A stretch of 64,000 bases of DNA from Candidatus Lustribacter sp. (GCA_965277805.1 OZ255842.1:2944001-3008000); one strand, 5' to 3'. Counted from the first letter of the stretch, positions 1 to 15,631 are shown. Numbers and translations: made by a program. The notes: a model not told the origin generated them from the sequence alone.

Positions 1-1283
1 ACACCGATTCATTCGATCACCTGAGAACCCAGCGCACGACGTCAAACGGTGCGTCGTTCTTCCACCGCGTGATCCAGCGCAGCCGCGACGCATCGAACTC
101 GACGATCTACAGCGGCTCATCGGCCGTGCTGCGCCGCCGGGCACTCGATGCGATCGGGGGCTTTGCCACCGGCACGATCAGCGAGGACGTGCACACCTCG
201 TTCCGACTGCACGCCGCCGGTTGGGGATCCGTTTTCCATCCCGAGATTCTCTCGGCCGGCATGGGACCGCTCAACGCCGCTGCCTACTGCGCGCAGCGTT
301 TGCGCTGGTCGCAAGACACGCTGCAGTTACTGCTGTGCGAAAATCTCTTCGCACATCCGACGCTGACCTGGCGCCAGCGCTTGGCCTACATCATCCACGC
401 CGCAAGCAACCTCGAAGGGTGGCGGCACGTCTTCATCTACGCGCTCCCGATCGCGATCCTGTTCACCGGCATCCTCCCGCTGCAAACGAGCGCGACGAGC
501 TTTCTGCTTCACTTCGTGCCGTACTTTCTGGCCACGAACATCACCCTCAGCGAATTCGCGCGCGGGCATCTGCGCGTTGACGAAAGCGCAATCTTTAACC
601 TCGCCCGCGCACCCGCATCAATTCTAGCGGTCTTCACCGCACACGGTGCGCACCGCTGGCGCGTGACGCCGAAAGCGCTCGGCGCTCCCGAACGCGCCGC
701 AGAGATGCGGTTCGCGGAAGCCGTTTTGGCGCTCTCGTCGGCCGCGATCGCCTTCGCGTGCATCGAAGAGTTCAGCGGCCGCTCGCAACTCAGCCGCGGC
801 GCGCTCGCGCTGGTCATCATATGGGCGGCGTATCACGTCAGCACCGGCGCGCGCCTCTTGGCGCTCGAATGGCGCTGCGCGCACAATCGCCGTGCGACGA
901 CGCGCTTCGGCGAACGGCTTCCGGCGGTGATCCAGCGTACGGACGATCCGCAAACGGCCTATGCGGTCGACATCGTGGCCGCATCGGCCGACGGCCTCAC
1001 GTTGCAAACCCCCGATCGGTCTTCGATACCGGCCGCCGGTACGTATCACGGCGAACTTGCTGTTGGAGCGGCACGTTATGCGTTCACGATCGACCTTGCC
1101 GGCGTCCGCGCCGGCGGTCCCGTACGATGGCCTGACGACGCGACGCGCAGTGCCTTCGATCAATACCTGCACCAAAGGGCGATCGCACGCTTCGGGGCGA
1201 CGGACCGCGGCGACCGCGGCGGCATTTTCCGCGCCGCCGAAGCGCTAGGGCGGAACGACCTGGAAAAACATGCGCGTTCGTGA
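1..1283 (+). CDS. Cellulose synthase BcsA-like GT2 processive glycosyltransferase, 3' part (5' end outside window), with degenerate C-terminal PilZ-like domain
   Basis: Frame is open from base 3. Motifs: GSSAVLRR, ISED (TED-like), QRLRW (QxxRW), several TM helices, then RRATTR and AASADG resembling PilZ RxxxR / xSxxG. Confidence 0.85.
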   Translation, partial: TDSFDHLRTQRTTSNGASFFHRVIQRSRDASNSTIYSGSSAVLRRRALDAIGGFATGTISEDVHTSFRLHAAGWGSVFHPEILSAGMGPLNAAAYCAQRLRWSQDTLQLLLCENLFAHPTLTWRQRLAYIIHAASNLEGWRHVFIYALPIAILFTGILPLQTSATSFLLHFVPYFLATNITLSEFARGHLRVDESAIFNLARAPASILAVFTAHGAHRWRVTPKALGAPERAAEMRFAEAVLALSSAAIAFACIEEFSGRSQLSRGALALVIIWAAYHVSTGARLLALEWRCAHNRRATTRFGERLPAVIQRTDDPQTAYAVDIVAASADGLTLQTPDRSSIPAAGTYHGELAVGAARYAFTIDLAGVRAGGPVRWPDDATRSAFDQYLHQRAIARFGATDRGDRGGIFRAAEALGRNDLEKHARS

Positions 1284-2744
1284 CGTGCTCGACAGACGAT
1301 GCAACCAGTTCGCCGGCACCGATCCGATACGCCTGAACCCTTGCGGGCCGGCGTCTAGGACGACCGGCCGGCAGCGCGCCCAATCCGGATACTCGCGCAC
1401 GTACTGGGCCGGCGAATCGTCGACGATGATCCGCGAGCCGAGCACTTTTTCAACCGCCGCGCCGTAGCCGAGTGAGTGGGAATCGGACCAGCCCGCAACT
1501 ACGATCGCACCGTCCGGGACGGTGCTCAGTACGTCGTCGATGGCGGACTGATTGCTCGGATACGTCCCTCCGAGAGGGAACGCCCGTGGAGAAAACGCCG
1601 CCACCAGCACGACGGCAACGAGAGCGATTGTCGCCGCCGCGGATGTTATCTTCTGCGGCACCTTCGGCAGCGCAAGGCGTGTACTCGTGGCCGCGAGTGC
1701 TGCGATCAGTGCCAACGATCCAAGCAAATAACCATGCACGTTGTCATCGTTGCGGTAGATCTGGGCAAATGCGATACCGCCGATGCTGCCGCAGGCAAGG
1801 ACGCTCAGGGAGCGCCGGTCGCTTCGCGCAAGCGCAACCAATCCGATCGCGCCGAGTACCAGGAGCCCGAATGAAAACTCTTCGCCGGCGGCTCTGAAGA
1901 CAAAGACGCCGGCTTTCGGATAGACGTTGAGATCGAGCATATGCGCAAGCGATGTACTCGCGTGTTCTTTGCGTCCCAAGACTTCATTGAGAAATCCGTC
2001 GAGCGTTCGCGGCTGGTTGGTATCCCAGTCGATCGATTCGACGCCGAACAGCGGTGCGGCCGCCGTCGGATCCAGATGTTGCGCGGCCACGATCGACGAG
2101 CGCAGAGGAAAATAGAGATAGAGCAGCAGAGGCGCGAGGAAGGCGAGCATGACGAAGCCGAGCGTGCGGCGGTCGAAGCGTTGGCGTTGCCACAGCGCGG
2201 ACACGATCACACCCGGCACGGCGAACAGCGCGAGCGGGTGCGCGGCGATCCCCAAGCCCGTGCACGCACACGCCGCAACGAATGTGCGGCGGTCGCCGGA
2301 GCGGGCGAACGAAACGCTCAGCGCCAGCGCGAAAATGATCGCGGGAACCGCGAAGACTTGAACGTTGGCTTGCTCGGCCTGTTGCCACGAGATAAGGCCA
2401 AAGGCAAACGTGAGACCGGAGGCCAGCGCCGCGATTGGTTGACTTTCAAGCGTCAGCGCGAGCACGGTTACACCCGAAGCGCAAAGCGCGACGGCCGCGG
2501 CCGTCAACACGTTTAGCCGCCATGCAACGGTTCCGAATGCCACGACGTGGGTGAATAGCCAACCGAGCAGCGTATATGCCGGAAAACCGGTCGCATGCGC
2601 GATGCCGAGGATGTAAGGAACGGTTTGGGCTTCGGCGTTGTCACCCGCCGAGACGGCCGATGAAAGCGAGGGTAGGTAGCAGATCAGCGCTCCGGCAAAG
2701 GCGACGATCGCCGCCGCGACGGCCTGCCGGCGCGCTTGCGTCAA
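1245..2744 (-). CDS. DUF2723 / TMEM260-like membrane glycosyltransferase (GT-C, putative protein O-mannosyltransferase)
   Basis: GDNAEAQTVPYILGIAHATGFPAYTLLGWLF matches the family GD.GE...LG(V/I)AHPPGYP motif; multiple TM helices. TTG at 2744 overlaps the stop of the upstream gene. Confidence 0.8.
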   Translation of the reverse strand: MTQARRQAVAAAIVAFAGALICYLPSLSSAVSAGDNAEAQTVPYILGIAHATGFPAYTLLGWLFTHVVAFGTVAWRLNVLTAAAVALCASGVTVLALTLESQPIAALASGLTFAFGLISWQQAEQANVQVFAVPAIIFALALSVSFARSGDRRTFVAACACTGLGIAAHPLALFAVPGVIVSALWQRQRFDRRTLGFVMLAFLAPLLLYLYFPLRSSIVAAQHLDPTAAAPLFGVESIDWDTNQPRTLDGFLNEVLGRKEHASTSLAHMLDLNVYPKAGVFVFRAAGEEFSFGLLVLGAIGLVALARSDRRSLSVLACGSIGGIAFAQIYRNDDNVHGYLLGSLALIAALAATSTRLALPKVPQKITSAAATIALVAVVLVAAFSPRAFPLGGTYPSNQSAIDDVLSTVPDGAIVVAGWSDSHSLGYGAAVEKVLGSRIIVDDSPAQYVREYPDWARCRPVVLDAGPQGFRRIGSVPANWLHRLSSTSRTRMFFQVVPP

Positions 2745-3019
2745 TCGACGCCGATATCCCAAACTGCGTCGAGTTCGCGCTTCGCAAAGGCCCGGAACGC
2801 AATCATCGTTTCCGTACTCGTAATCCCGGGCCGATTCGCAATCACCTCGGTCACCAGATCGCTCAACTGGTCGTGTTCACGTACGCGCACGATCGCTATG
2901 AGGTCGAACGGCCCCGCGACACTGTATACCTCGGTCACCCCTTTGACCGAGAGAAGCTCCTCGGCGAGCGATTTGACGCGGCCCGGCTCGACGCTGAGCA
3001 TAACGAAGGCGGTAATCAT
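2741..3019 (-). CDS. Lrp/AsnC ligand-binding (RAM) domain protein, no HTH
   Basis: 92 aa; GVTEVYSVAGPFDLIAIVRV...GITSTETMI is typical of a standalone AsnC ligand-binding domain. Confidence 0.9.
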   Translation of the reverse strand: MITAFVMLSVEPGRVKSLAEELLSVKGVTEVYSVAGPFDLIAIVRVREHDQLSDLVTEVIANRPGITSTETMIAFRAFAKRELDAVWDIGVD

Positions 3020-3262
3020 TTAGCGAATCTTCCGTTCAAGGCGGCTCTTGCGGGCGGCACGCAGCCGCTCGACCTGGTTATAGACATCGGCCGTCCGGGA
3101 TTTCGTCACCTTGACCCGGTGGGAACGGATGCGCATGACGAACAGCAGCAGCACGATCCCGATGGCCCCGAATGCGCACGCCAGGCGCAGTTCCCAAGGC
3201 AGGAGGGCACCGGCCACGAGAAACGCAGCCACGATGGCCAGCGCGTTCTGCCACGGCCGCAT
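3020..3262 (-). CDS. Small hypothetical membrane protein
   Basis: Two hydrophobic segments and a basic tail; stop abuts the Lrp start. Start is 3262 (ATG) or 3277 (GTG). Confidence 0.65.
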   Translation of the reverse strand: MRPWQNALAIVAAFLVAGALLPWELRLACAFGAIGIVLLLFVMRIRSHRVKVTKSRTADVYNQVERLRAARKSRLERKIR

Positions 3263-3582
3263 CGGTGAAACGGTCACCCCGGCCGTGTTCGCCGCCCCTT
3301 GCCCGCCGCTTCTTCCCCGCGCCGGCGCCGTCGTCTGTCAAAATGCTTACTAAGGCTAACAATTTGACTAAGCGTGAAGTCACAGTCTAGCGGCTTGGCC
3401 AGGGCACGGTAAAAGCGGTCCCGTAAGAACGCTCGTCCGGTATGCGGGCAGCCAGTCGATTGCGTCGGCGCTAATGCTGAACGGGCATCGGGACGACTAC
3501 TAGAGTGGGGTGGCGGCTGCTAAGGCGGCCTTCAAAGCATACCCTTTGGGTGTTTTTCGATCGGAGTCGGGACACGAGCACG

Positions 3583-4722
3583 ATGACCAAGGAACGAAAT
3601 CTGATCGCTTTCGCCGTTATAGCGGTCCTTGCCGCGTGTGGCGGGGGCGGCGGCGGCGGCACGGCATCGCTTCCCAGCGGCCCGAGCTCCGTCACCGCGA
3701 CGCCGACGCCGGGCGCGATCGCCACATCCACGCCGGCGCTGCCGGCCGGCTACGCGGTCGACAGCGTCTCGATCACCATGGCGAAGGGCACCTATGTCGC
3801 CGCCTCGACCCGTAATGTCCAGGCTATCGGCACGGGCACGCAGTCGATCGTATTTACGCTCTTGCAGCAGAACGGGGTGCCGCTCACCGGCGCGCCGCAG
3901 ACCTTCGGTTTGACCGGCTCCAGCTCAGGGTGCACGACGAATCCGAACACCCAAGCGTTGACCTGCGTTCTGCCGGTCAACGCTCCCGTCGGACAGGACG
4001 TCTTCCTCGCGCAGACCTACTCGAATGCGAACGGCACGGGAAGCCTGACCGGAAGCGGGGCCGTAGCGCTCAGCGTCGGCATCAATTCCACGAATACCGC
4101 CTCGATCGTGCTCAACGCACAGGTCGCCTCGGTGCTCGTCGTCACCGGCAGCTTCTATCTCGGTAACTACGTGAACTCGCAGGCCATATCGCGACGCGCC
4201 GGCACGTCCGCGCTTCGGCAGATCGCGACTCAAGGAACAGTGTACCCGAACGTGTCGTCGACGCAGGTCTTCGTCGTGGCCGTCGATAGTTCGGGCAACA
4301 CGATTTTGAACCCATCGACCTACAGCTCGCCGGTCTACCTTCAACTCGCGTATGACTACACCGATGGCCTCTCCGGTGGCGTGCCGATGACGGCCGACGT
4401 CACCTTGACGGCGACCTATGCGGCGAACGATCCGGCCCCGTGCACGGGAGGCAGCGCGACGGCCGCGGGCTGGTATACGAGCTTTGCGCTCTGCTCGCCG
4501 AGCGACATCGTTACCGCCAGCATGACGCCGAACGTCCTCGCGAGTCCGTCATGGGACGCCTACGTTCTCGGACAGACCAACTCGAACTTACTGCTTCCGA
4601 CGCCGGCGCCAAACACGACCCCAGCGCCGATAGCCTCGCTCCCGGCAACGAACTCGTTTGCTGATATTTACGTCATCTATCCCACCACCCCGCCCGGCAA
4701 TATCACGGTGATCGGACAATGA
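3583..4722 (+). CDS. Ser/Thr-rich beta-sheet lipoprotein, paralog 1 of a local family
   Basis: MTKERNLIAFAVIAVLAA|CGGGGGG lipobox; Cys pair (GCTT...LTC) followed by APVG; ends in a beta strand GNITVIGQ. Confidence 0.85.
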   Translation: MTKERNLIAFAVIAVLAACGGGGGGGTASLPSGPSSVTATPTPGAIATSTPALPAGYAVDSVSITMAKGTYVAASTRNVQAIGTGTQSIVFTLLQQNGVPLTGAPQTFGLTGSSSGCTTNPNTQALTCVLPVNAPVGQDVFLAQTYSNANGTGSLTGSGAVALSVGINSTNTASIVLNAQVASVLVVTGSFYLGNYVNSQAISRRAGTSALRQIATQGTVYPNVSSTQVFVVAVDSSGNTILNPSTYSSPVYLQLAYDYTDGLSGGVPMTADVTLTATYAANDPAPCTGGSATAAGWYTSFALCSPSDIVTASMTPNVLASPSWDAYVLGQTNSNLLLPTPAPNTTPAPIASLPATNSFADIYVIYPTTPPGNITVIGQ

Positions 4723-6254
4723 GGCGCAGCGGAATGCGAACGACATTCTACACTCTCGGAGCCGCAGCGGTAATCGGCAGCGTCCTGACGGCGTGCGGCG
4801 GCGGTTCGTCATCGTCGTCTCAGTCGACGGTGCCCCTGCCGTCGTCGTCGATCCCGCCGGTCGTGCAAGGCATAACGCCGACCGGACCGACCGCGCCGAT
4901 GACGATCACCATCGCCATCCCGCAACATGTCACGACGACCGCCGCAGCACACGCTTTGGTAAGCAAACGCATCCACGCGCTCTACGGAGCGAAGAGTTCG
5001 GATTCCCGGATCCGCACGATGGCCAACACATCGCCGTCGGCATCGATTCGTCAGGCCGGCGCGCAGTTGGAGAAGTCGGCGAAACAAATCGAGCTAAAGA
5101 CGGGCCGCAGCCCTGAGTACGTTTCGCCCGGCACGTATTATATGGAATTAGTGATGTCGTCCGGCGCGACGAACGTCTCCGATCAAACGGCCTACTGCTC
5201 GGTATCCTCTAACCAGTGCTCGGCAACGTTTAACGTTCCGGTGGGCACAGGTTTCACTGCAGCGCTTTACTTATACGACGATTGCGACTACTTGCTCTCC
5301 GCCGGCGCGGCATCGAACGTGACCATCGTCTCCGGTTCGAACGCGCCGCTCACGATCACGTTAAACCCCGTCGTCGCCTATTTCGACGTCACCGCAACCG
5401 CGACGACTCCGTTCATCGCCGATCCGTCGCAGGCGCAAACGTTCAACGTTTCGGTGACGCCGCTCGATGCAGAGTATTACAATAACAGCCAGCAGAACGT
5501 CGTCACCACGCCCGGCGTTCTGGTTGACTCGACGTTCCATCAAATCACCTCGGTGACGCTGGCGCTCTCATCGGCCTACCCCGACGTCACACCGTCGGGG
5601 CCGCAAACGTTGAACGTGCCGGTGTTGGCGCAAAACTCGATCAACACGTATACGTTCCCGACGACCTCGTACACCTTCGGTGGAACCGGTACCGAGGGGA
5701 GCGTCGTTTGGACGGCGACCCCCAACACCGTCGGAAGCCCGATCGTCCCGACGAACGAGCGCGGCCCTTATTCTGACGGCACGCCGAGTCCCGGCACAAA
5801 CGTCGGCTCCCTCTCCATCACCGACAATCCAGTGGCCCTTAGCTGGACCAATCCGCAGGGATACCCGCAAAGCAGTGGTGATCCGGTGATTGCGTCGCAG
5901 GGCACCGGTACCAACGTCACTTACTGGTCGGCCGAGTTCCCGAACCCGGCCAATACCAGCACGTACACCTTTGGGCTCAACGAGAATATCCCGTTCAGCG
6001 GAAACATCACGCTCAGCGATAACGGCCAGTGCGTATCGAGCGTCGTTTCCTCGTACACCCCAACTCTCGGTACCTATCCCTTCTCCCAGCTCAACACGAG
6101 CCCGTACGTTCTGATCACGATGAACTCCAGCAGTAACACGGCGGCGTGTATCGTCACGGCGACCGATGACGCGGCCACACCGCGCAGTACCCAACTGCAG
6201 ATCTTCGTCGACAGTTCTACACTGACTATTCAGAATAAAGCGAGGGCCCATTAA
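4719..6254 (+). CDS. Ser/Thr-rich lipoprotein, paralog 2
   Basis: VLTA|CGGGSSSS lipobox; GRSPEYVSPGT motif; Cys pair; ATGA overlap with the upstream gene. Confidence 0.85.
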   Translation: MRRSGMRTTFYTLGAAAVIGSVLTACGGGSSSSSQSTVPLPSSSIPPVVQGITPTGPTAPMTITIAIPQHVTTTAAAHALVSKRIHALYGAKSSDSRIRTMANTSPSASIRQAGAQLEKSAKQIELKTGRSPEYVSPGTYYMELVMSSGATNVSDQTAYCSVSSNQCSATFNVPVGTGFTAALYLYDDCDYLLSAGAASNVTIVSGSNAPLTITLNPVVAYFDVTATATTPFIADPSQAQTFNVSVTPLDAEYYNNSQQNVVTTPGVLVDSTFHQITSVTLALSSAYPDVTPSGPQTLNVPVLAQNSINTYTFPTTSYTFGGTGTEGSVVWTATPNTVGSPIVPTNERGPYSDGTPSPGTNVGSLSITDNPVALSWTNPQGYPQSSGDPVIASQGTGTNVTYWSAEFPNPANTSTYTFGLNENIPFSGNITLSDNGQCVSSVVSSYTPTLGTYPFSQLNTSPYVLITMNSSSNTAACIVTATDDAATPRSTQLQIFVDSSTLTIQNKARAH

Positions 6255-7351
6255 TGAGCCGCCTCTCTCGGGCCGGTGCTGCAGCCCTAACGGCAGCGAT
6301 CGTCCTTGCGGGATGCGGCGGCGGCGGCGGCAGCAGTGCCGCGCCGCCGAGCAACGCGCAGTCCGCGCCTACCACCATCACGAAGGTTGCTCCGCCGGCG
6401 GCAGCCGGCCGCACGTCATACGGCACGGCGAAGCTTACCCTCGCCCTGCCGAAGGCGCTCCGCGGTAGCACGACGGCAAACGTGGTACGAGCAATTCCGC
6501 ACGGGAAGGCCACCACGGCGTCAACCGGTCGCCATGCGCAATTCGTCGATCCATCTCCCGCGCCGGGCGTGGGCGTCTGTCAAGGAAACGTCATCGACAT
6601 CTATGTCGACGGCTCACTCATTCCGGCAATCGATGGCCAGGGCGAACAACCCGATTCGCTTTGCGTTCAGAGCTCGATCGACGGAACGCAGACCGTTAAC
6701 GTCCCGCTCTTCTCCAGCAGCAACAACGAAGTCGTCGTGGTTGAGTGGGATCCTTACGTTTCGAGTATCCTGGCATTGGGAGAAACGAACTACGGCAACT
6801 TCAGCCCGGGAAGTGCAGTGAATCTGACGGTGACGATGCAGGAGAACGCGCAGTACATCGGCGTCACCGATCTCAGCTTCAACGGGCCGCAGCTGATGAC
6901 GGGCGGGACGTGGTACGACCTCGTTGGATCCTGTCCGGGAACATCGCAATTCACCGCCTTTACGGCGGACTTCAACGGCGTGTTTATTCCCGTCGCGGGC
7001 TACGGTGGAACCTCGAATCCGGTTCTCACCGGAACGTCGGACAATGGCGGTACGTCCAGGCTCACGCAATCATCTGCAGCCGGCGTTTACGTCGTCTCGT
7101 GGGATTCGAATTGCGACGGCGTCGAGGCATCTGCTACGGCACCGAACCCCGTGTATTCGATCTACGGTGACGTCACTAACACCAATTACTACAACTACTA
7201 TAACGACTACCATTATTACAATGAGGTAGGTTCGCCGAACCAGGGCATTTGGAACCTGGTCTACGTGTTCAACGACACGTTGGGCCAGAATTTCTATCAG
7301 CTCAGCACCCCGACTATCAACGGCACCATCGACATCCAAAACGACGGCTAG
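6254..7351 (+). CDS. Ser/Thr-rich lipoprotein, paralog 3
   Basis: VLAG|CGGGGG lipobox; GRHAQFVDP motif; TAATG coupling to the upstream gene. Confidence 0.85.
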   Translation: MSRLSRAGAAALTAAIVLAGCGGGGGSSAAPPSNAQSAPTTITKVAPPAAAGRTSYGTAKLTLALPKALRGSTTANVVRAIPHGKATTASTGRHAQFVDPSPAPGVGVCQGNVIDIYVDGSLIPAIDGQGEQPDSLCVQSSIDGTQTVNVPLFSSSNNEVVVVEWDPYVSSILALGETNYGNFSPGSAVNLTVTMQENAQYIGVTDLSFNGPQLMTGGTWYDLVGSCPGTSQFTAFTADFNGVFIPVAGYGGTSNPVLTGTSDNGGTSRLTQSSAAGVYVVSWDSNCDGVEASATAPNPVYSIYGDVTNTNYYNYYNDYHYYNEVGSPNQGIWNLVYVFNDTLGQNFYQLSTPTINGTIDIQNDG

Positions 7352-7379
7352 AAACACAACGCTCGTCACCGCCGCCGTC

Positions 7380-8849
7380 GTGGCGGCGGTGGCGCTGGCC
7401 GTATACCTCCCACAGGTACCGGCGGGCGTCGGCGTCGGCGACGAAGCGGAAGCGCAAACGGTTCCCTACATCCTCGGGATCGCGCATACACCCGGCTTTC
7501 CCGTGTTCACGCTCGCGGGCTGGCTCGCTTCACATGCCATACCGTTCGCGAGCGTTGCGTGGCGAATGAACGCTTTCAACGCGGCATGCACGGCTGCGGG
7601 CGCTGCCGGCATCGTTCTGCTCGCGGTTGAACTCGGGGCCGGGATTTTTGCGGCGGCTGCAGCGGCGTTCGTTTTCGCATTCGGCAATACGATTTGGAAC
7701 GGCGCATTGCACGTGAACGTGCAAGTGCTTGCTGCAACGTTGGGGATCTACTCCCTCTGGGCCAGCGTCAGGTTTTCGCGTGACGGCAGCACGCGCACGC
7801 TCGTCGCCGCGTGCGGGTTCTGCGGACTCGGAATCGCGGCGCATCCGGCCGTAATCTGGATCGTCCCCGGCGTGATCGTGGCTGCGCTCATACAATGGCG
7901 GTGCTTATCAGTCAAGGTCGTGGCACTCGGCGTACTGGTACTCATCGTTCCGCTCTCGTTGTATGCCTACGTTCCGCTTCGCGCGCACGTGATCGCAGCG
8001 CATGGGCTCGACCCGCTGGCCGCAGCGCCCTTCGGCGGCTTGGGTTCGTTCGACTGGAGCACAGCCACACTACAGGGTTCCGGGAGCCCCGCGCAACGTT
8101 TTGTGGGACACGGCGATGTTGCGGTCCTCCGCTCACTCGATCCGGGCCCGCTTCCCCAGGCGGCGAACACCTGGATCGCGCTCGCACTCGCGCAATACCG
8201 TCTGCTATTCTTACTGCTCACCGGCGCCGGACTCGTCGCGCTCGCGCAGAGCAATCGTCGTGCGCTGGCCGTTCTCATCGCCGGCACGCTCGGCGGAATT
8301 GCCTTCGCGTACACGTACCGCCTCGACACCCACCTGGACCGTTACCTCATCGTTTCGTTTGCGGTTACCGCAGCGGTCGCCGCGGCGAGCACGCAACTGC
8401 GTATTCCGCGCGTGCCCGATATGGCCGTGCGAACCATTACCCTCATCGCGCTCGCGTTACTTGCGGTCAATGCCGGGACGAATAATGCACCGCTGCCCCC
8501 CAGCCGCCTCGATGTTCCGGGAGAAGCGATTATCGCGGCTGCTCGCCACGACACGCCGGCAAACGCGATCGTCGTCGCGCAGTGGAACGACGCGACCGCC
8601 CTCGGATACGGCACCTTCGTCGAGCATTCGCTGGACGGGCGAACGATCGTCGATGCGTGGCCGAATCAATTCAGCAACCGCTACGAATCCTGGGCGCGCA
8701 CGCGCCCGGTCATCCTCTTCGTCAGTCCGCTAGCGGCACTCCGAATCTATCCGATGTGGGCCAATCTGCGTGAGCTCGACAGCACCCTACCCACGTACCG
8801 CGTCTTTGCGGTAGTGGCGCCGCGCCCGCACCGGCACCGCAGGCGCTAG
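7380..8849 (+). CDS. Second DUF2723 / TMEM260-like membrane glycosyltransferase
   Basis: GDEAEAQTVPYILGIAHTPGFP; collinear paralog of 1245-2744 (WRMNA/WRLNV, GLGIAAHP, LDP.AAAP). True start may lie slightly upstream of 7380. Confidence 0.8.
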   Translation: MAAVALAVYLPQVPAGVGVGDEAEAQTVPYILGIAHTPGFPVFTLAGWLASHAIPFASVAWRMNAFNAACTAAGAAGIVLLAVELGAGIFAAAAAAFVFAFGNTIWNGALHVNVQVLAATLGIYSLWASVRFSRDGSTRTLVAACGFCGLGIAAHPAVIWIVPGVIVAALIQWRCLSVKVVALGVLVLIVPLSLYAYVPLRAHVIAAHGLDPLAAAPFGGLGSFDWSTATLQGSGSPAQRFVGHGDVAVLRSLDPGPLPQAANTWIALALAQYRLLFLLLTGAGLVALAQSNRRALAVLIAGTLGGIAFAYTYRLDTHLDRYLIVSFAVTAAVAAASTQLRIPRVPDMAVRTITLIALALLAVNAGTNNAPLPPSRLDVPGEAIIAAARHDTPANAIVVAQWNDATALGYGTFVEHSLDGRTIVDAWPNQFSNRYESWARTRPVILFVSPLAALRIYPMWANLRELDSTLPTYRVFAVVAPRPHRHRRR

Positions 8850-9241
8850 TCGTCGTCGGATTCGTGCAAGTGCAGATGCGAGCCGTCTTCGGCGTCATCG
8901 AGCACTTCGCGCGCTTCGCTGAGGACGCTCGCGGGTAACGTTCCGCCGCGTTCGACCGTGCCTTCGGGCGCGAGGAAGTCGAGTTCGTCCCAGTCTTCCC
9001 ACGTTTCCAACCGCTCGGTCTCGTCGTCGACTTCGCGACCGTCTTCGTCGGGGAAGCGCACGCAGTAACCCTGGTCGATGTGCAAGCCGGTCACGAGCAC
9101 GCGCGTCCCTTGCGGGTAATACGTCCCGTCTTTCCAGAGGGTGCCGGACGTGGTGTCGTAATAGGTGCCGATGCGTATCGGTTCGATGGTTCGGTTTCTC
9201 CGTTGCGCGACGTCGTGCGCGTTGGCCGAGTGTTTCCGCAT
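8846..9241 (-). CDS. Acidic hypothetical protein
   Basis: Fills the gap between two + strand genes; protein-like composition (GTYYDTTSGTLWKDGTYYP...). Start uncertain. Confidence 0.6.
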   Translation of the reverse strand: MRKHSANAHDVAQRRNRTIEPIRIGTYYDTTSGTLWKDGTYYPQGTRVLVTGLHIDQGYCVRFPDEDGREVDDETERLETWEDWDELDFLAPEGTVERGGTLPASVLSEAREVLDDAEDGSHLHLHESDDD

Positions 9242-9265
9242 CGCGCTCGAAATTCCCCATAACGC

Positions 9266-9817
9266 ATGAGCGATCAACCGCTGCGCCACTGGACCGTACG
9301 CTCGTCAACTTATCGCGTAAACGAGCCGTTTCTGCGCGTTCGCAGCGATACGGTCGAACTACCCGACGGTACAGTCATCGAGAACTACTTCGTGCGGGAG
9401 AGCCGCGGCTTTGCGATTGTGGCCGCGATCACGCCGGACCGCCGGATCGTCTTGGTACGCCAATATAAACACGGTATCGCGCAGATCGTGCTCGAGCTTC
9501 CGGCCGGGATGATCGACCCCGGCGAAGCGCCCGAGGCGTGCGCGATTCGTGAACTCGCCGAGGAAACCGGGTACGCGGGCGAGCCGCCACGGCTACTCCG
9601 AACGCTCTTTGCCGACCCGACCAGTTCCAACGCCAGCTTCCACGTGTTCCTGATCGAGAACGCGGTGCCGAAATTCGCCCAGTCGCTCGACACGACCGAG
9701 GCGATCGTGGTCGAAACGGTGACCATCCAGGAGCTGCACACGGCCGTCCGCGACGGACGGATCGGCTCCGGTTCGCAGGTCGCAGCGGTGTACGTCGCCT
9801 TGGATCACATTCAGTAA
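9266..9817 (+). CDS. NUDIX hydrolase (ADP-ribose pyrophosphatase-like)
   Basis: Nudix box GMIDPGEAPEACAIRELAEETGY; LVRQYKH. Confidence 0.92.
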   Translation: MSDQPLRHWTVRSSTYRVNEPFLRVRSDTVELPDGTVIENYFVRESRGFAIVAAITPDRRIVLVRQYKHGIAQIVLELPAGMIDPGEAPEACAIRELAEETGYAGEPPRLLRTLFADPTSSNASFHVFLIENAVPKFAQSLDTTEAIVVETVTIQELHTAVRDGRIGSGSQVAAVYVALDHIQ

Positions 9818-9874
9818 CGGCCCGCTCCGGCAATACGGGGAAGCGCCCGGAAGCCGTCTAATCGGGATACGGTA

Positions 9875-11872
9875 ATGAATGCCCGGTTGCAGTCGTTGGG
9901 TTTTGCCGTTGGCGGTTCACTCGCGCTGGCCGCCGTAACGGCATGCGGCGGCGGTGGGGGCGGATCCGGCGCGCCAGGCGCGCCCGTGCCCAACGTCACC
10001 AGCACCCCGGGCTCCTTCGCCCAAGGCACTGCCGGGGCGTCGATCACGCTTTCGCTACGGCAATATTCGCCGGTCGACACCTCGGCGACGAAGCGCCGCG
10101 CGGCCTACGTGTCGCCGGCCACCGCGCAGATCTCGCTGACCGTCATCTCGGTGAACGGGACGCGCGTGACCGGGACGCCCACGACGTTTCCGGTCAGCCC
10201 GACCTCGCCCGGCTGCAGCGGAACGAACGGCGTCGTGACGTGCACGCTCAACGCAAACATTCCGATCGGCAACGACGTGCTCACCGCGAGCACGCTCGAT
10301 GCGAACGGACATTCGCTCGGCACGTCGACGATCACGGCGAGCATCCAGCAAAACCTGGCGAACAGCATCGCGCTCTCGGTCGGCGGCACGATCGCGAGCC
10401 TGCAGATGTATCTTTCGCAAACGCAATTCGCATCGGGCACGCCGGGCACGGCCAACGTCATCGTGGTTCCGCTCGATCAATCGGGCGCCGAGATCGTCAA
10501 CCCGGGCAACTACAACCCGTCGATCGCGTTGACGTCGAGCAGTTCCGTGAACGGCCACGTTTCGCTGATCACCGACGGCGTGAACACCGGTCAATCCGGC
10601 ACGATCGTCAGCCCCAACGACCAAATCGTCGTCAACTACGACGGCGTCGCGACGAGCGGCGGCAGCACGATCACCGCGAACGCCGGCGGCGGCATCACCG
10701 CGAGCCGCAACGTCTCCGTGAGCTCGCCCGGACTCGGCGCGAGCCCGTCGGGCGCGCAGTTCGTTTCGTCCTCCTCCTATGTGTTTACGGCGGTCGGACA
10801 GACCGGCACGATCAACGTTTCCGGCGGCACCGCGCCCTACACCGTGGTCTCGAGCGATACCGGCGTCGCGACGATTTCCGGCACCGGACCGTTTACCGTA
10901 ACCGCCGCGGGCTACGGCACGGCGGGGACGTCGACGATCACCGTGACCGATCATGTCGGCGCGCACACCACCATTCCGGTGACGTTCATCGCGCCGGCCA
11001 TTCTACTCACCGCGAGCGTCTGCGGCGGTACGACCTGTTCCGCCGGCGGCGTTTCGTATACGGTGCCGATCGGCGGCCCCACGAGCCCGCTCTCGCCGAC
11101 GACCGTCACGGCCGTCGGCGGCACCGGAACGTACGGCTACTTCTTCATCTCGAGCGGAACGACGACCAGTCAATACGCGACGGTCTCGCAAGGCGGCAAT
11201 ACGTTCACGATCACGCCGAGCGGTTTCGGCAACGACGCGATCATCGTTACCAGCGGCAATCAGACGGCGTACTATGCGATCGTCGCGAGCGCCGACGCGT
11301 TCGGATCGACGCTGCCGGCCGCGATCGGCATGCTCTTCGAGAGCAGCGGCGGCGGCGCGAAATTCTACTCGGCAACGCTGCCCAACGCGGTCACCAATGT
11401 CACGGCTTCTCCGCTGATCAGCGGCTTCATGTTCAACGCCGGCAGCCCGCCGTCGATCGACGCAACGCCGACGAGTCCGGGCAATGGAACGTTCTCGTTT
11501 ACCAGCGGTTTCGGCACGCCGACGACGATTCCGTACACGGTCTTCGGGCTTTCGTTCGGGTCATACCAGGGCAGCGGGTTCACGCAGAGTTCGGAAATGC
11601 CGGTTCCGGCCGACGAAGCGTTCACGGCCACCGGTGAATCCGATCTGCTCACCGTGAGCGGTTTGACGGCGAACTTCAACCTCAGCGCGCAATCGGCAAA
11701 CACCAGCGTCGTAACCGCCTCCGCGGCCGCAAATCACGTCACGGTCACGTCCGTCGGTTCGGGAACGACGACCGTGCTCTTAACCGATACCGGCAACGGC
11801 GCCACCGTGACATTCACCGTGAGCGTAACGAACACGCTGATTCCAATCGCCGGTCACCTGCGGAGCCGATAA
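9875..11872 (+). CDS. Ser/Thr/Gly-rich lipoprotein, paralog 4, with tandem Ig-like repeats
   Basis: AVTA|CGGGGGG lipobox; KRRAAYVSPAT; Cys pair; repeated SS(D/N)T.V(A/V)T...TVT...GT(S/T)T(I/V) Ig-like units. Confidence 0.85.
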   Translation: MNARLQSLGFAVGGSLALAAVTACGGGGGGSGAPGAPVPNVTSTPGSFAQGTAGASITLSLRQYSPVDTSATKRRAAYVSPATAQISLTVISVNGTRVTGTPTTFPVSPTSPGCSGTNGVVTCTLNANIPIGNDVLTASTLDANGHSLGTSTITASIQQNLANSIALSVGGTIASLQMYLSQTQFASGTPGTANVIVVPLDQSGAEIVNPGNYNPSIALTSSSSVNGHVSLITDGVNTGQSGTIVSPNDQIVVNYDGVATSGGSTITANAGGGITASRNVSVSSPGLGASPSGAQFVSSSSYVFTAVGQTGTINVSGGTAPYTVVSSDTGVATISGTGPFTVTAAGYGTAGTSTITVTDHVGAHTTIPVTFIAPAILLTASVCGGTTCSAGGVSYTVPIGGPTSPLSPTTVTAVGGTGTYGYFFISSGTTTSQYATVSQGGNTFTITPSGFGNDAIIVTSGNQTAYYAIVASADAFGSTLPAAIGMLFESSGGGAKFYSATLPNAVTNVTASPLISGFMFNAGSPPSIDATPTSPGNGTFSFTSGFGTPTTIPYTVFGLSFGSYQGSGFTQSSEMPVPADEAFTATGESDLLTVSGLTANFNLSAQSANTSVVTASAAANHVTVTSVGSGTTTVLLTDTGNGATVTFTVSVTNTLIPIAGHLRSR

Positions 11873-13704
11873 TGTACCGCGCACTCGCGCTCGTCGCATC
11901 AATCGGCATTCTCGCCGGTTGCGGCGGCGGTGGGAGCCACGCTCTGCCGAGCCCCGCATCCGGCTCATCCGGTTCGGGCACCAAAGGCGCGCAAGCGACG
12001 GCGCGGTTCAGTTTGACGATCCCGAACGCGAGTGCGGCACCCGCCGGCGCGCGCCGGGCGCAGTTCGTCTCGCCGTCGACGCTCTCCGGAACGATCGCGG
12101 TCAACGCCGGACCGGTAACCGAACTCGACCTCAGCCTCGCGAGCCCGAACTGTACGACGATTATTAACGGACGCAGTTGTTTGATCAGCGTCGCCGCCCC
12201 GATCGGCGCTTCCGACACCTTCACGCTGGTGCTCTACAACGGGTCGTTTACCAGCGGTATGCATACCGGTACCGCGCTATCGGGCGCGTCGAACTTCACC
12301 GCGGCGGTAACCGAAGGCGTCTCGAATATCACGACGCCGCTGATCCTCGGTGGAATTCCGAAATCGGTCGACGTCGTCATCAACGGGACGCTTACTGCGG
12401 GCACGCCCACGACGGTTCCGGTTGTGATCACCGCTTACGACGCGAGCAACAACGTGATCGTCGGCGCCGCGACCTTCGCCGACGCAACCGGCGCTGCCGC
12501 GCCGCTCACCCTCTCGCTAGGGACGCCGCAACAAGTGCTGCTCCACGACGGGGCTCAGGCCGCAACGAGCATCACCGTTGCGGGACCGGCCGATGCCGTC
12601 ACGTTGCAACTCCAAGCGCCGGCCAACGTGCTAGGCACGTATGTGTCGGTGAAGAATAGTTCGAGCCAAACGCTACCTGCGTTCAACCTGACGCGTTTCG
12701 TCGCGCTGAGCGGCACGTTGAACTCGACGCAGCTCGCGGCGTCGCTTACCTTCTTTCCGGATGACGTCTACTTCGCGCCGTCCGACAGCACGCTCGTCTC
12801 CGGCGTGCCGAACGGCTTCGCGTTCTCGTACACGACGGCGAGCGGCGGCGGATATCTCGGCTACTTCAACAGCGCGAACGAGGGTCTCTTATACTGTAGC
12901 GTCGTGAGCGGATTCACGCTCGGTATCGGTTCGATAACGAACGGCATCGTCAGCGCCTTCAATGGGGCCGATAACGTCGCGTCGCCCCCGACGGGGCTCG
13001 TCTATTACCCGCTGGGACAACTCACCAATACCGGGCCTGCGTGCGCGGGCGGCACGCCGTACACGAGCCCGGCGGGAGGTTTCGCCAAATCGCTCGCCTT
13101 CGATCCGAGCGGCAGCCAAGTTTTCGAAGGCGACAACAACGGCGACCTCGACGTCGATACGTTTACCGGACCGTCGACGCTCAGCGGTAACGCCGTCGTG
13201 CAGAACTACGGCGCGAACCACCCGCACGACTTGATCGCGCTCCAGGGAAGCCTCTACTTTCTCACCGGCACCACCAACAACACGCTCGACGGTCTCAACC
13301 CGACGATCGCCGCGACGGCGGGCAGCGACCACCTCACGTCGTTGCGCAACGGGCAAGACGGCCGCATCTATGCCCTCGGCGCTGCCAACAAACAAGTGTG
13401 GGTGTACAACGGCTCGCCTTCGATGCAGCAATACACGGCGGCGAACGCGTTCACGATCACGCCCTCGACGCAGCCGAACAACCTCGCGATCGGTCCGGAC
13501 GGCAGCGCCTACACGACGGACGGAGCCTCAACGATTCAAGGGGTCACGTCCGGCGGCGCCGCTTCGACGCTCGTCATCCCGCCGCCGGGCGGCAACATTG
13601 GATACCTCACGGGAATCTTCGACGGCCGCAACGGCTACTTGTATGCGGCCTACGACGACGGGCTCCACGCCGGTCACGAGTATTTCTATCGTATCTCGTA
13701 CTGA
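11872..13704 (+). CDS. Lipoprotein, paralog 5, with C-terminal beta-propeller-like region
   Basis: ILAG|CGGGG lipobox; ARRAQFVSPST; blade-like motifs SLAFDPSGSQVF, GQDGRIY, LAIGPDGSAY. Confidence 0.85.
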   Translation: MYRALALVASIGILAGCGGGGSHALPSPASGSSGSGTKGAQATARFSLTIPNASAAPAGARRAQFVSPSTLSGTIAVNAGPVTELDLSLASPNCTTIINGRSCLISVAAPIGASDTFTLVLYNGSFTSGMHTGTALSGASNFTAAVTEGVSNITTPLILGGIPKSVDVVINGTLTAGTPTTVPVVITAYDASNNVIVGAATFADATGAAAPLTLSLGTPQQVLLHDGAQAATSITVAGPADAVTLQLQAPANVLGTYVSVKNSSSQTLPAFNLTRFVALSGTLNSTQLAASLTFFPDDVYFAPSDSTLVSGVPNGFAFSYTTASGGGYLGYFNSANEGLLYCSVVSGFTLGIGSITNGIVSAFNGADNVASPPTGLVYYPLGQLTNTGPACAGGTPYTSPAGGFAKSLAFDPSGSQVFEGDNNGDLDVDTFTGPSTLSGNAVVQNYGANHPHDLIALQGSLYFLTGTTNNTLDGLNPTIAATAGSDHLTSLRNGQDGRIYALGAANKQVWVYNGSPSMQQYTAANAFTITPSTQPNNLAIGPDGSAYTTDGASTIQGVTSGGAASTLVIPPPGGNIGYLTGIFDGRNGYLYAAYDDGLHAGHEYFYRISY

Positions 13705-14722
13705 CGCGCCGGCAACGCCGACCGTCTCGGTCGTCATTCCGCTGCGGACGGCCGGGCCGAATCTGCGTGAGTGCCTCGCACACCTCACCCGTCAGACATA
13801 CCGGAACTTCGACATCTACGTTGTGCCGGATGCGCCGCTGACGCTCGGCGATGCACGATTGCACGTCATCGCCTCGGGACCCGTGCTGCCGAATCGTAAG
13901 CGCCAGATCGCCGCGGAAGCGAGTACCGCGGACATTCTCGCCTTCATCGACGACGACGCATACCCCGATCCGAATTGGCTCACCAACGCCGTGCGGCATT
14001 TCGACGACCCGAACGTCGTCGGTGCGGGCGGCCCCGCCGTAACCGCATCCAGCGATTCACCCCGGGAACGCGCGAGCGGTGCGATCTTCTCATCGGCACT
14101 CGTCACCGCTACGACGCGCCACCGCTACGTTGCGGAAGCGCAGCGCGACGTCGGGGCGCTGGCCTCGTGCAATCTGCTCGTGCGACGCGAAGCGTTTCTG
14201 CGCGATGCTGAGGCGAGCGTGCGCTACTGGCCGGGTGAAGACATTTTACTGTGCATGTTCGCCGCGCGTGACGGCGCGCGTATCGTCTACGACCCGACCG
14301 CGCTCGTCTACCACCACCGGCGCGCCGTCTTCGCCGGACATCTGCGCCAGGTGTGGGCCTACGGACGCTTCCGCGGCTTCTTCTTACGGCGTTTGAGCAC
14401 GTCGCGCAGCGATGCCGCGTATGCCGCGCCGGCAACGTTCGTGCTCGGACACGCGTTGCTGCTCGCAGCCCTCAGCCGGCCGCGCTGGCGCTTCGCCGGC
14501 GGCTTCATCGTCGGCGTGTATGCGGCGCTCGTCGCGTGGGAAGCGGTGCGCACGGCGCGTACCGAACGCGCCGATCCGTGGCTCGTCGCCGCCGGCATCT
14601 ACCTCACGCATTTCACCTATGGTCTCGGAACGATCGTCGGGTGGCTGCGCGGCTCGGCGATGTGGCCGCAATCAGCCGCTGTAACGCAAGCGGACGCGCA
14701 AGCCGAACAGCCGCCGGGCTAA
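13682..14722 (+). CDS. GT2 family glycosyltransferase with C-terminal TM helices (start codon unresolved)
   Basis: VSVVIP, AFIDDDA (DxD), PGED, VYHHRR. No canonical start near the domain N-terminus; the 13370 ATG lies deep inside the upstream gene. Confidence 0.8.
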   Translation: MSIVSRTDAPATPTVSVVIPLRTAGPNLRECLAHLTRQTYRNFDIYVVPDAPLTLGDARLHVIASGPVLPNRKRQIAAEASTADILAFIDDDAYPDPNWLTNAVRHFDDPNVVGAGGPAVTASSDSPRERASGAIFSSALVTATTRHRYVAEAQRDVGALASCNLLVRREAFLRDAEASVRYWPGEDILLCMFAARDGARIVYDPTALVYHHRRAVFAGHLRQVWAYGRFRGFFLRRLSTSRSDAAYAAPATFVLGHALLLAALSRPRWRFAGGFIVGVYAALVAWEAVRTARTERADPWLVAAGIYLTHFTYGLGTIVGWLRGSAMWPQSAAVTQADAQAEQPPG

Positions 14723-15631
14723 CGCTCGCAAACGCGCCTTCAGCGGTGACGGAAACGCGTACGGAATACGCGCCCGCTCGAGATGCCCGCGCTCGATCAA
14801 ATCAGCGGCGTAGGCTTCGAGCAGCGCTCGCAACCGCGGATGTTCGCTCGGCCGGATGCGTACGGGCAGCGCGCACAACCGGTCCGGGCGACGCGGATCG
14901 AAACCGCTGAAATGAAAGAACACCACCGGCTCGCCCGTGCGCAGCCGTAGCTCGTCACCGCTGTCGAGCATGCGCGCAGACAGATTCCAATACGCGACGT
15001 TACAACCGCGATGGCGTACGATATGCGTACGCTCGAAAATGCCGGGCACGAGATCGATCCAGCGCTGATCGACAAACAGACCGGACTGCACGTCGACCCG
15101 GCAAAACGCGGCCAGCCGCGCACTCCACCAATCCAACATCGCGCGCGCGTTGGCCGTATTCGCAACGCCGATGCAGCCGAGGTTGTACACGCCGGTCCGC
15201 AAAATCGCAAGCTCGATGCCCACCCGTCCGTCGATCGGGCCGGCATCGGTCGCGTGCGGGGTGAGTACGATGTCGTTGGACGCGAGCGGCTCGATCAGCG
15301 GAGTCAGCGGCGCGAAAACCTGAATGTCGGAGTCGAAATATACGACGCGATCGTAGCCCCGATCGAGTAGGTGCCGCACGAGCGCTGGCTTTATCGCCGT
15401 GGAGAGCTCGTTCGCGTCGTAGCTGCGCACCAACTCGTCGTAGTCTGACGGTGGAAATACAGCGGCCGGTCGCACGATCGTGCCCTCCGAAAGCGTTTCC
15501 ACCCTATCGACGTCATCGACGACGAAAGCAAAACGATCGCAATCCGGTTCGAACGTCGCCACGGACGCGAGCAACAATCGCACTTTCGCGAAATAATTTC
15601 GCGTGGCGATCGTACAGACGGCGATTCGCAT
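14672..15631 (-). CDS. GT-A fold glycosyltransferase (GT8-like / nucleotide-diphospho-sugar transferase)
   Basis: CTIATRNY, STAIKP, YFDSDI (DxD), LTPH, YNLG, DQRW, NVAYWNL, FFHFSG. Confidence 0.8.
   Translation of the reverse strand: MRIAVCTIATRNYFAKVRLLLASVATFEPDCDRFAFVVDDVDRVETLSEGTIVRPAAVFPPSDYDELVRSYDANELSTAIKPALVRHLLDRGYDRVVYFDSDIQVFAPLTPLIEPLASNDIVLTPHATDAGPIDGRVGIELAILRTGVYNLGCIGVANTANARAMLDWWSARLAAFCRVDVQSGLFVDQRWIDLVPGIFERTHIVRHRGCNVAYWNLSARMLDSGDELRLRTGEPVVFFHFSGFDPRRPDRLCALPVRIRPSEHPRLRALLEAYAADLIERGHLERARIPYAFPSPLKARLRALARRLFGLRVRLRYSG

Follow-up and report, generated by a model that had tools for sequence, protein, structure and literature searches.

Five lipoprotein genes of Candidatus Lustribacter belong to a large, undescribed and lineage-restricted family of Eremiobacterota lipoproteins

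The locus considered here raises the question of whether five related lipoprotein genes from Candidatus Lustribacter sp., a soil bacterium of the phylum Eremiobacterota, encode the subunits of a pilus or a similar surface polymer. Bacteria of this phylum are abundant in acidic soils and peat and have barely been cultured, and to our knowledge almost nothing is known about their envelope. The genes, which are referred to as P1 to P5, lie at positions 3583-13704 of a 64,000-nucleotide stretch of DNA (GCA_965277805.1 OZ255842.1:2944001-3008000), the whole of which is called the window. The original prediction held that their products are laid out like the type V pilins and are candidates for an undescribed polymer. 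The type V-like layout (lipobox, first strand, Arg loop and conserved tails) was recovered in the present work, but the assembly of a pilus or polymer received no positive support. The results described below place the five genes in a lipoprotein family that is large, has not been described before and is restricted to one lineage. The genes and their parts, in window coordinates, are as follows (domains and helices being those of the predicted structures; ORF, open reading frame; aa, amino acids; Ig, immunoglobulin).

3583-4722, plus strand: P1 lipoprotein gene, 379 aa ORF; lipobox Cys19 at 3637-3639; strand 1 (SVSITMA) at 3763-3783; Arg loop R77-S88 at 3811-3846; remainder with two Ig-like domains, a Pro-rich loop and the C-terminal tail PPGNITVIGQ at 4690-4719
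4719-6254, plus strand: P2 lipoprotein gene, 511 aa ORF; lipobox Cys26 at 4794-4796; strand 1 (MTITIAIP) at 4899-4922, followed by a Lys/Arg-rich helical insert; Arg loop R130-Y141 at 5106-5141; remainder with three Ig-like domains and the tail SSTLTIQNKARAH at 6213-6251
6254-7351, plus strand: P3 lipoprotein gene, 365 aa ORF; lipobox Cys21 at 6314-6316; strand 1 (AKLTLALP) at 6428-6451; Arg loop (R93) at 6530-6565; remainder with a Tyr/Asn-rich C-terminal region and the tail NGTIDIQNDG at 7319-7348
9875-11872, plus strand: P4 lipoprotein gene, 665 aa ORF; lipobox Cys24 at 9944-9946; strand 1 (ASITLSLR) at 10037-10060; Arg loop (R74) at 10094-10129; remainder with a long Ser/Thr/Gly-rich C-terminal part and the tail NTLIPIAGHLRSR at 11831-11869
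11872-13704, plus strand: P5 lipoprotein gene, 610 aa ORF; lipobox Cys17 at 11920-11922; strand 1 (ARFSLTIP) at 12001-12024; Arg loop (R61) at 12052-12087

A large family from one lineage

By pairwise BLASTP, similarity was detected between P1 and P4 (E=7e-10) and between P4 and P5 (E=9e-6), while the remaining pairs were weak (E>=0.066). A profile constructed from the five proteins retrieved each of them at E<=5e-53, together with additional paralogs. An iterated profile search over all ORFs of the 5.53-Mb genome converged on a shared N-terminal module of ~200 aa that is present in 20 ORFs at 15 loci. In 18 of these 20 ORFs a lipobox was recognised by regular expression immediately upstream of the module, and in the alignment the other two show the sequence C-GGGG at this position. 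When a profile of 19 modules was searched against 1.84 billion representative proteins, matches were found in 4,467 protein clusters at E<=1e-3, in 3,469 at E<=1e-10 and in 822 at E<=1e-30. The matching proteins are 217-1,036 aa long. Nearly all of the top 150 have the module starting within their first ~50 residues, and 135 of these 150 have a canonical N-terminal lipobox.

For the species distribution of the module, 151 Eremiobacterota genomes were sampled. It is present in 70 of the 71 other genomes from the host's own family and, elsewhere in the phylum, in the single genome of a sister family, two of nine genomes of a third family (one of them G128) and the single genome of family f7; it was not found in the genomes sampled from the remaining families. 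The module is nearly confined to one Eremiobacterota family. Its highest copy number, 66 genes, was observed in a complete genome of 4.5 Mb (G144), and in another genome six module genes are arranged head-to-tail at ~1.8 kb from one another (G101:C27:3177-12904). In gene and cluster numbers this family is the largest lipoprotein expansion of the Eremiobacterota seen here. For the individual members, 49 relatives of P1 were detected at E<=1e-3 and 28 orthologs of P4 with identities of 49-92%, and one near-identical locus (L021) shows 96% identity. A search of 60 other genera of the host family at E<=1e-20 revealed no P1-type ortholog, and the P1-P2-P3 triad is therefore narrow in its distribution.

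Existing family models did not describe these proteins. In searches of Pfam and NCBIfam at E<=0.1, no family was detected in the five lipoproteins except for one meaningless low-complexity match. A Pfam search of the C-terminal parts of P2-P5 at E<=5 gave two sub-threshold matches only and none for P4, the only match of P5 being a weak one to SSL_N (E=0.29). The module profile detected nothing meaningful among PDB sequences (best E 0.56), and a limited literature search found no published work on Eremiobacterota lipoproteins. The family is covered by neither a Pfam nor an NCBIfam model and has no relative of known structure at the sequence level. A definition of the module provides a handle by which thousands of "hypothetical proteins" can be annotated.

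The relatives differ in what follows the module. A Pfam scan of 70 representatives identified Vgb_lyase in 14, Reg_prop in 14, NHL in 13, SGL in 10 and Peptidase_S8 (subtilase) in one, and no pilin families. At the 15 loci of the genome, the products that recur among neighbouring genes are NMT1/THI5-like solute-binding proteins (16 genes, nine loci), Rieske/LigXa oxygenases (six loci), luciferase-like monooxygenases (five), MFS transporters (four) and esterases (four). Because most relatives bear propeller heads and adjoin transport or oxygenase genes, we read the module as the stalk of anchored envelope proteins. The usual arrangement is that of a C-terminal head, and a domain-in-loop insertion was seen in one paralog (L016; G000:C1:4616895-4618520, minus strand), where a Vgb-lyase-type propeller of ~275 aa (PF24684, E=1.4e-49) lies between the Cys pair of domain 1. 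As a whole propeller is tolerated between the two Cys, this Cys hairpin is an exposed scaffold loop.

Shared features, predicted fold and composition

Most of the sequence features that had been claimed for the five proteins are indeed present in them. A lipobox followed by Cys-GGG (LAAC, LTAC, LAGC, VTAC and LAGC in P1 to P5, respectively) occurs in all five and leads into a Ser/Thr/Pro-rich tether. The amphipathic strand quoted for each is likewise present in every protein, and is a beta-strand according to AlphaFold2 (AF2) in P1 and P2, the two that were modelled. An Arg is found four residues ahead of an [FYA][VI] motif in all of them (R77, R130, R93, R74 and R61), the spacing of lipobox Cys, strand 1 and Arg being 44-104 residues. 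A Cys pair with P[VI]G after it, which had been ascribed to four of the proteins, is seen in P1, P2, P4 and P5; P3 retains the first Cys and has a Gly at the position of the second. Other claims hold in part. The loop preceding the Arg, described as basic, is both long and basic in P2 and P3 only. The Lys and Arg residues past the Arg motif had been counted correctly (R348 and R489 before the tail of P2, and only R269 in P3), but their scarcity is not specific for this region and extends to the whole family and to other lipoproteins of the CGGG type in this genome. Similarly, translational coupling is confirmed by start and stop codon overlaps between P1 and P2 (ATGA), P2 and P3 and also P4 and P5 (both TAATG), but P3 and P4 are separated by a gap of 2.5 kb with three ORFs.

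The AF2 models of the mature proteins, which were based upon 92 alignment rows for P1 and 51 for P2, have a predicted local distance difference test score (pLDDT) of 80.8 and 84.8, respectively (predicted template modelling score of 0.80 for P2), and the only folded domains in them are beta-sandwiches. By VIA, two Ig-like domains are present in P1 and three in P2, and all structural matches were Ig-like. Domain 1 of the P1 model covers about residues 37-160 and domain 2 about residues 161-350, the last strand of the latter coming back only past a 27-residue Pro-rich loop. In P2, the third Ig-like domain (residues 346-478) has an MSP/PapD-like shape, and helices are modelled at mature residues 50-103, within the Lys/Arg-rich insert that is kept in orthologs. 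According to these models, the ~200-aa module consists of two Ig-like beta-sandwich domains, the first of which holds the predicted disulfide hairpin; the second appears invasin/Big_1-like in its predicted fold and has an invariant Asp. The Pfam family Big_1 (PF02369) matched none of the five proteins and one of 70 relatives. Foldseek returned only generic tandem-Ig structures from the PDB for P1 (best E 2.3e-5, TM<=0.23) and P2 (best E 5.6e-7).

In both models strand 1 forms the integral first strand of Ig-like domain 1 (pLDDT about 84-89), and the Arg loop connects strands 1 and 2, with pLDDT<50 at residues 60-62 of P1 and 107-112 of P2. Burial of the C-terminal strand, which had been named as an observation that would speak against polymer formation, was not seen: the tails are unplaced in the monomer models, residues 351-361 of P1 having a pLDDT of 44-56 and residues 473-486 of P2 being coil. 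The strands of the free tails comprise 5-6 residues, compared with 9-10 for strand 1. A two-copy complex prediction for P1 with the part preceding the Arg removed (mature residues 60-361) scored 0.00 in both runs; it was made without controls and weighs neither way on binding.

A family consensus was derived from 157 aligned module stretches. It contains 23 columns conserved at >=80%, including both Cys (99% each) and the invariant Asp of domain 2. The Arg column has Arg in 89% and either Lys or Arg in 93% of the sequences, compared with a mean Lys/Arg content of 3.1% over the module. The motif Y-V-S-P-S-T-x-S follows the Arg, and its two Ser are conserved at 99% and 94%. Conservation is also seen at the C-terminal ends: the P1 tail, G-x-h-x-V-h-G-[QS]-end, is kept in nearly all orthologs, the P2 tail, S-[ST]-L-T-I-Q-N-K-A-R-x-H, in its orthologs, and the P4 tail, T-T-I-P-[IV]-[AST]-x-x-x-R, in 28 orthologs. 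By its sequence, the C-terminal part of P4 looks like a series of Ig repeats. P5 lacks a free tail strand; its C-terminal ~360 aa contain a repeated G-x-h-Y-h motif and probably form a beta-propeller, and its C-terminal end is shared with P0176.

The proteins of this family are also unusual in their composition. Lys and Arg together make up 2.3% of the 20 paralogs in this genome, compared with 11.5% of the proteome and 8.4% of other lipobox candidates, and Asp and Glu make up 4.9% of the family versus 10.7%. A mature C-GGG start was found in 14 of 111 non-family lipobox candidates from the genome, and most of these are poor in Lys and Arg (0.5-5%, versus about 8% in the others). A poly-Gly start could be the label of a class of lipoproteins with a destination of their own, for example the surface. 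As the low charge also concerns Asp and Glu, and extends to the 14 non-family candidates, it characterises a class of exported proteins rather than a "pilin body". The scarcity of all four residues fits an exposed location that is protease-rich or acidic. Many relatives carry long basic tails, with runs of Arg, Lys or His over 10-30 residues, on bodies containing <3% Lys and Arg. It is possible that such tails serve as a sorting signal, in binding to the envelope, or are trimmed.

Possible roles: an anchored coat, a released stalk or a fibre

The explanation that we favour, and which we regard as on balance probable, is that the five genes encode anchored, probably glycosylated envelope proteins. 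Each protein would be exported by Sec, acquire its lipid at the lipobox Cys through Lgt and LspA, and in its mature form be held on the Gly/Ser/Pro/Thr tether. To judge from the architecture of the family, the module would act as a stalk presenting a variable C-terminal part, which is mostly a Vgb-lyase, NHL or SGL propeller in the relatives and would consist of extra Ig-like domains in P1-P4 and of a probable propeller in P5. P1, P2 and P3 represent a conserved, coupled triad whose members are probably made in fixed proportions. Because genes for TMEM260-like and GT2 glycosyltransferases and for phosphomannose isomerase are present in or near the cluster, we infer that the Ser/Thr/Pro-rich tethers and linkers are O-glycosylated. 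Proteins of this kind could form part of an exposed envelope coat or an adhesive layer. The genome encodes Lgt (PF01790, E=2.3e-58), LspA (PF01252, E=2.0e-33) and an Omp85 protein.

A number of observations weigh against this explanation. Of the linear motifs in this family, the segment immediately past the Arg is the best conserved, yet its pLDDT is <50 in the models of both P1 and P2, and a plain stalk leaves this conservation unexplained. It also offers no reason for the conservation of the P1, P2 and P4 tails, nor for the fivefold enrichment of Lys and Arg at the C-terminal end, where these residues constitute 13.5% of the last ten positions versus 2.7% of the body in 170 proteins (at least one Lys or Arg is present there in 103 of the 170, whereas 39.5 are expected). 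The stalk does not account for the combination of a conserved, flexible loop holding an invariant Arg with conserved basic tails on proteins otherwise poor in Lys and Arg, and the favoured explanation leaves the role of the Arg loop and of the conserved tails unexplained. LolA (PF03548) was not found in the genome, in a search whose control was also silent in several diderm bacteria. In regard to glycosylation, TMEM260-like genes occur in 112 of the 151 Eremiobacterota genomes, including families that lack the module; none was found in five genomes rich in module genes (G101, G115, G129, G137 and G138). Among five other complete genomes only G144 has such genes near a module gene (one adjacent and one 8 kb off), and the link is therefore local. 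The idea that Y-V-S-P-S-T is a family-wide sequon for TMEM260-like enzymes was rejected, since these enzymes occur regardless of the module, were not found in the five genomes rich in it and, among the five complete genomes, adjoin a module gene only in G144.

The loop and the tails are the features upon which a comparison with type V pilins rests. In PMC8512630 and PMC4789730, these pilins are described as lipoprotein precursors in which cleavage after an exposed Arg or Lys removes the N-terminal strand and so creates a groove into which a C-terminal donor strand fits. Their layout, with Cys19 and with the exposed residue of the beta1-beta2 loop at position 43-55, is taken from these two papers, including Table 2 of PMC4789730, and PMC8512630 reports structural homologs of these pilins only from Bacteroidia. 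On such a scheme P1-P4 would be the subunits of a fibre and P5 its tip, an Arg-specific surface protease would remove strand 1 together with the lipid anchor, and the C-terminal strand of the next subunit would fill the groove. The spacing of lipobox Cys, strand 1 and Arg in the five proteins resembles the plan just described (PMC4789730, PMC8512630). As in the pilins of Bacteroidia (FimA/Mfa1; Mfa4, 5dhm; FimA, 4q98 and 3liu), there is a lipoprotein precursor with a conserved and exposed Arg/Lys in the loop between strands 1 and 2, beta-sandwich domains, a cluster of about five related genes and C-terminal strand(s) outside the compact fold. A fibre would also fit an Arg loop that is conserved yet modelled with low confidence, ortholog-conserved tails that are unplaced in the monomers, the late return of the last domain-2 strand in P1, a body low in Lys and Arg with a C-terminal end high in them, and a conserved, translationally coupled triad. 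However, the proteins differ from type V pilins in belonging to another phylum, in the apparently invasin-like predicted fold of domain 2 and in the propeller heads of most family members, and no sequence-family match links the two groups: FimA/Mfa Pfam families were detected neither in the five proteins nor in 70 relatives or the genome, PF06321 was not found in the genome although the control matched in B. thetaiotaomicron, and no FimA/Mfa family is among the 25 commonest families of the 70 relatives. A gingipain was not found either, the Peptidase_C25 search of the genome giving no match with its control likewise silent. Further, this module, with its Arg, is also found on propeller proteins that lack such tails and are scattered among catabolic loci, which speaks against a pilus as the module's general function, the tail strands are shorter than the strand that they would replace, and the presence of the Arg in all five leaves no candidate for an uncleaved anchor subunit. 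The donor region of type V pilins is much longer than these tails. We consider a fibre of this kind improbable. There is a small chance that a protease-primed, strand-donating fibre exists in Eremiobacterota as an independent, non-homologous counterpart of type V pili, with the Arg loop as its priming site and the propeller relatives as alternative tips or released cargo; if so, type V-like fibres would for the first time be known from outside Bacteroidia.

Cleavage at the Arg loop could also take place without any polymer, and the loop and the conserved basic tails on proteins poor in Lys and Arg are a hint of proteolytic maturation. A trypsin-like envelope protease would in this case act on a family-wide release switch and free stalk and head from the lipid anchor, such that the lipoprotein pathway becomes a means of secreting or shedding enzymes and adhesins. 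This suggestion, which we consider unlikely but likelier than a fibre, explains why the Arg is found in all types of family members, including the propeller enzymes, at a frequency far above the Lys/Arg mean of the module; low pLDDT combined with conservation is as expected of a linear recognition motif, the body poor in Lys and Arg would shield the freed protein from the same protease, and the basic C-terminal tails could be trimmed likewise. However, conservation is higher in Y-V-S-P-S-T-x-S than at the Arg, an unusual pattern for a simple cleavage loop, and the removal of a strand that is integral to domain 1 would leave its sheet open and unfilled. No protease candidate was identified, and the halved content of Asp and Glu indicates that the low charge fits adaptation to acid or to the surface without any cleavage. 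The tails might, alternatively, pair edge strands within a fixed hetero-oligomer of P1, P2 and P3, in which all three remain lipid-anchored and form an envelope coat or adhesin complex. At identities of 38-65% the order P1-P2-P3 holds in four loci, and that of P1-P2 in a further two; there are overlaps of start and stop codons, and each orthogroup retains a tail of its own. Nevertheless, tandem arrays of paralogs without such tails are common in the family, as illustrated by the six in a row in G101, and of the explanations considered here we give this one the least chance.

The favoured explanation, that of anchored envelope proteins, may also be compared with several known systems. The invasin/intimin/FdeC adhesins with Big_1 domains are anchored by an outer-membrane beta-barrel rather than by a lipid. 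The surface lipoproteins of Bacteroidetes that combine Ig-like domains with a head (BT_0210, PDB 4ecn; BT_1938, DUF4876, PDB 4q1z) come from a different phylum, show no sequence similarity to the present family and have no counterpart of its Arg loop, Cys hairpin or poly-Gly start. In Actinobacteria, O-mannosylated lipoglycoproteins, which are substrates of Pmt/GT39 enzymes, have a Ser/Thr/Pro-rich tether past the lipid anchor and GT-C mannosyltransferase-type genes nearby. The same type of tether and nearby GT-C genes are found here, but the enzymes are TMEM260-like (PF11028) and not GT39, and glycosylation would be supported by a gene link that is local. Human TMEM260 acts on Ig-like IPT domains, and the operon link to TMEM260-like genes offers a bacterial system in which this family of O-mannosyltransferases could be studied on Ig-like substrates.

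Sugar-related genes around the cluster

The genes within and next to the cluster are as follows.

1245-2762, minus strand: second TMEM260-like GT-C glycosyltransferase (PF11028, E=2.7e-14, 53.8 bits, cut-off 24.2), divergent from the P1 operon
7380-8849, plus strand: TMEM260-like GT-C glycosyltransferase of a protein O-mannosyltransferase-like family (PF11028, E=1.9e-13, 51 bits, cut-off 24.2), 29 bases past P3
8846-9289, minus strand: acidic 147-aa ORF with no Pfam match, overlapping the start of the Nudix gene
9266-9817, plus strand: Nudix hydrolase upstream of P4 (PF00293, E=8.8e-17)
13643-14722, plus strand: GT2 glycosyltransferase (PF00535, E=1.2e-14), start uncertain, overlapping the end of P5
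16175-17248, minus strand: phosphomannose isomerase-like gene (PF20511, E=6.8e-7)

Three TMEM260-like genes are present in the genome, and two of them are in this cluster. Together with the phosphomannose isomerase-like gene and two GT2 genes (3-1283 and 13643-14722, both on the plus strand, one of them cellulose-synthase-like), they form a sugar-related island around the lipoproteins. The best NCBIfam match of the Nudix hydrolase is to NudE (ADP compounds hydrolase; E=1.6e-18), and is under the cut-off of that model.

Gene order was compared among metagenome contigs carrying relatives of P1 at 41-65% identity. The order P1-P2-P3 is preserved in all four loci of sufficient length (L035, L036, L037 and L042), P1-P2 being present in the two shorter ones. 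In two of the four, L035 and L037, the next gene after P3 is TMEM260-like. Both P4 and P5 are found in L042 and L021. In L035 P4 is missing, and all that is left of a P5-like gene between the Nudix and GT2 genes is its final ~111 residues (L035:15346-15672), indicating that the P4-P5 pair is dispensable or was recently lost there. The GT2 gene follows P5 in L021 and the P5 remnant in L035, and the phosphomannose isomerase-like gene adjoins the cluster in both of these loci. The acidic ORF at 8846-9289 shows 70-97% identity in L035, L037, L042 and L021, which exceeds the conservation of the surrounding lipoproteins.

Some smaller ORFs were also observed. Between the GT2 and phosphomannose isomerase genes there is a 319-aa ORF (14672-15631, minus strand) that has no Pfam match and is 74% identical in L021; its N-terminus gives no more than the impression of a nucleotide-sugar transferase. 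Upstream of P1, a plus-frame ORF at 2576-3268 was discarded, its conservation by tblastn being the shadow of small genes on the opposite strand. The minus strand of this region, which is kept upstream of P1 in relatives, contains ORFs of 92 aa (2741-3019) and 85 aa (3020-3277), of which, to judge by their sequences, the former resembles a ligand-binding (RAM) domain of the AsnC/Lrp type standing alone and the latter a small membrane protein.

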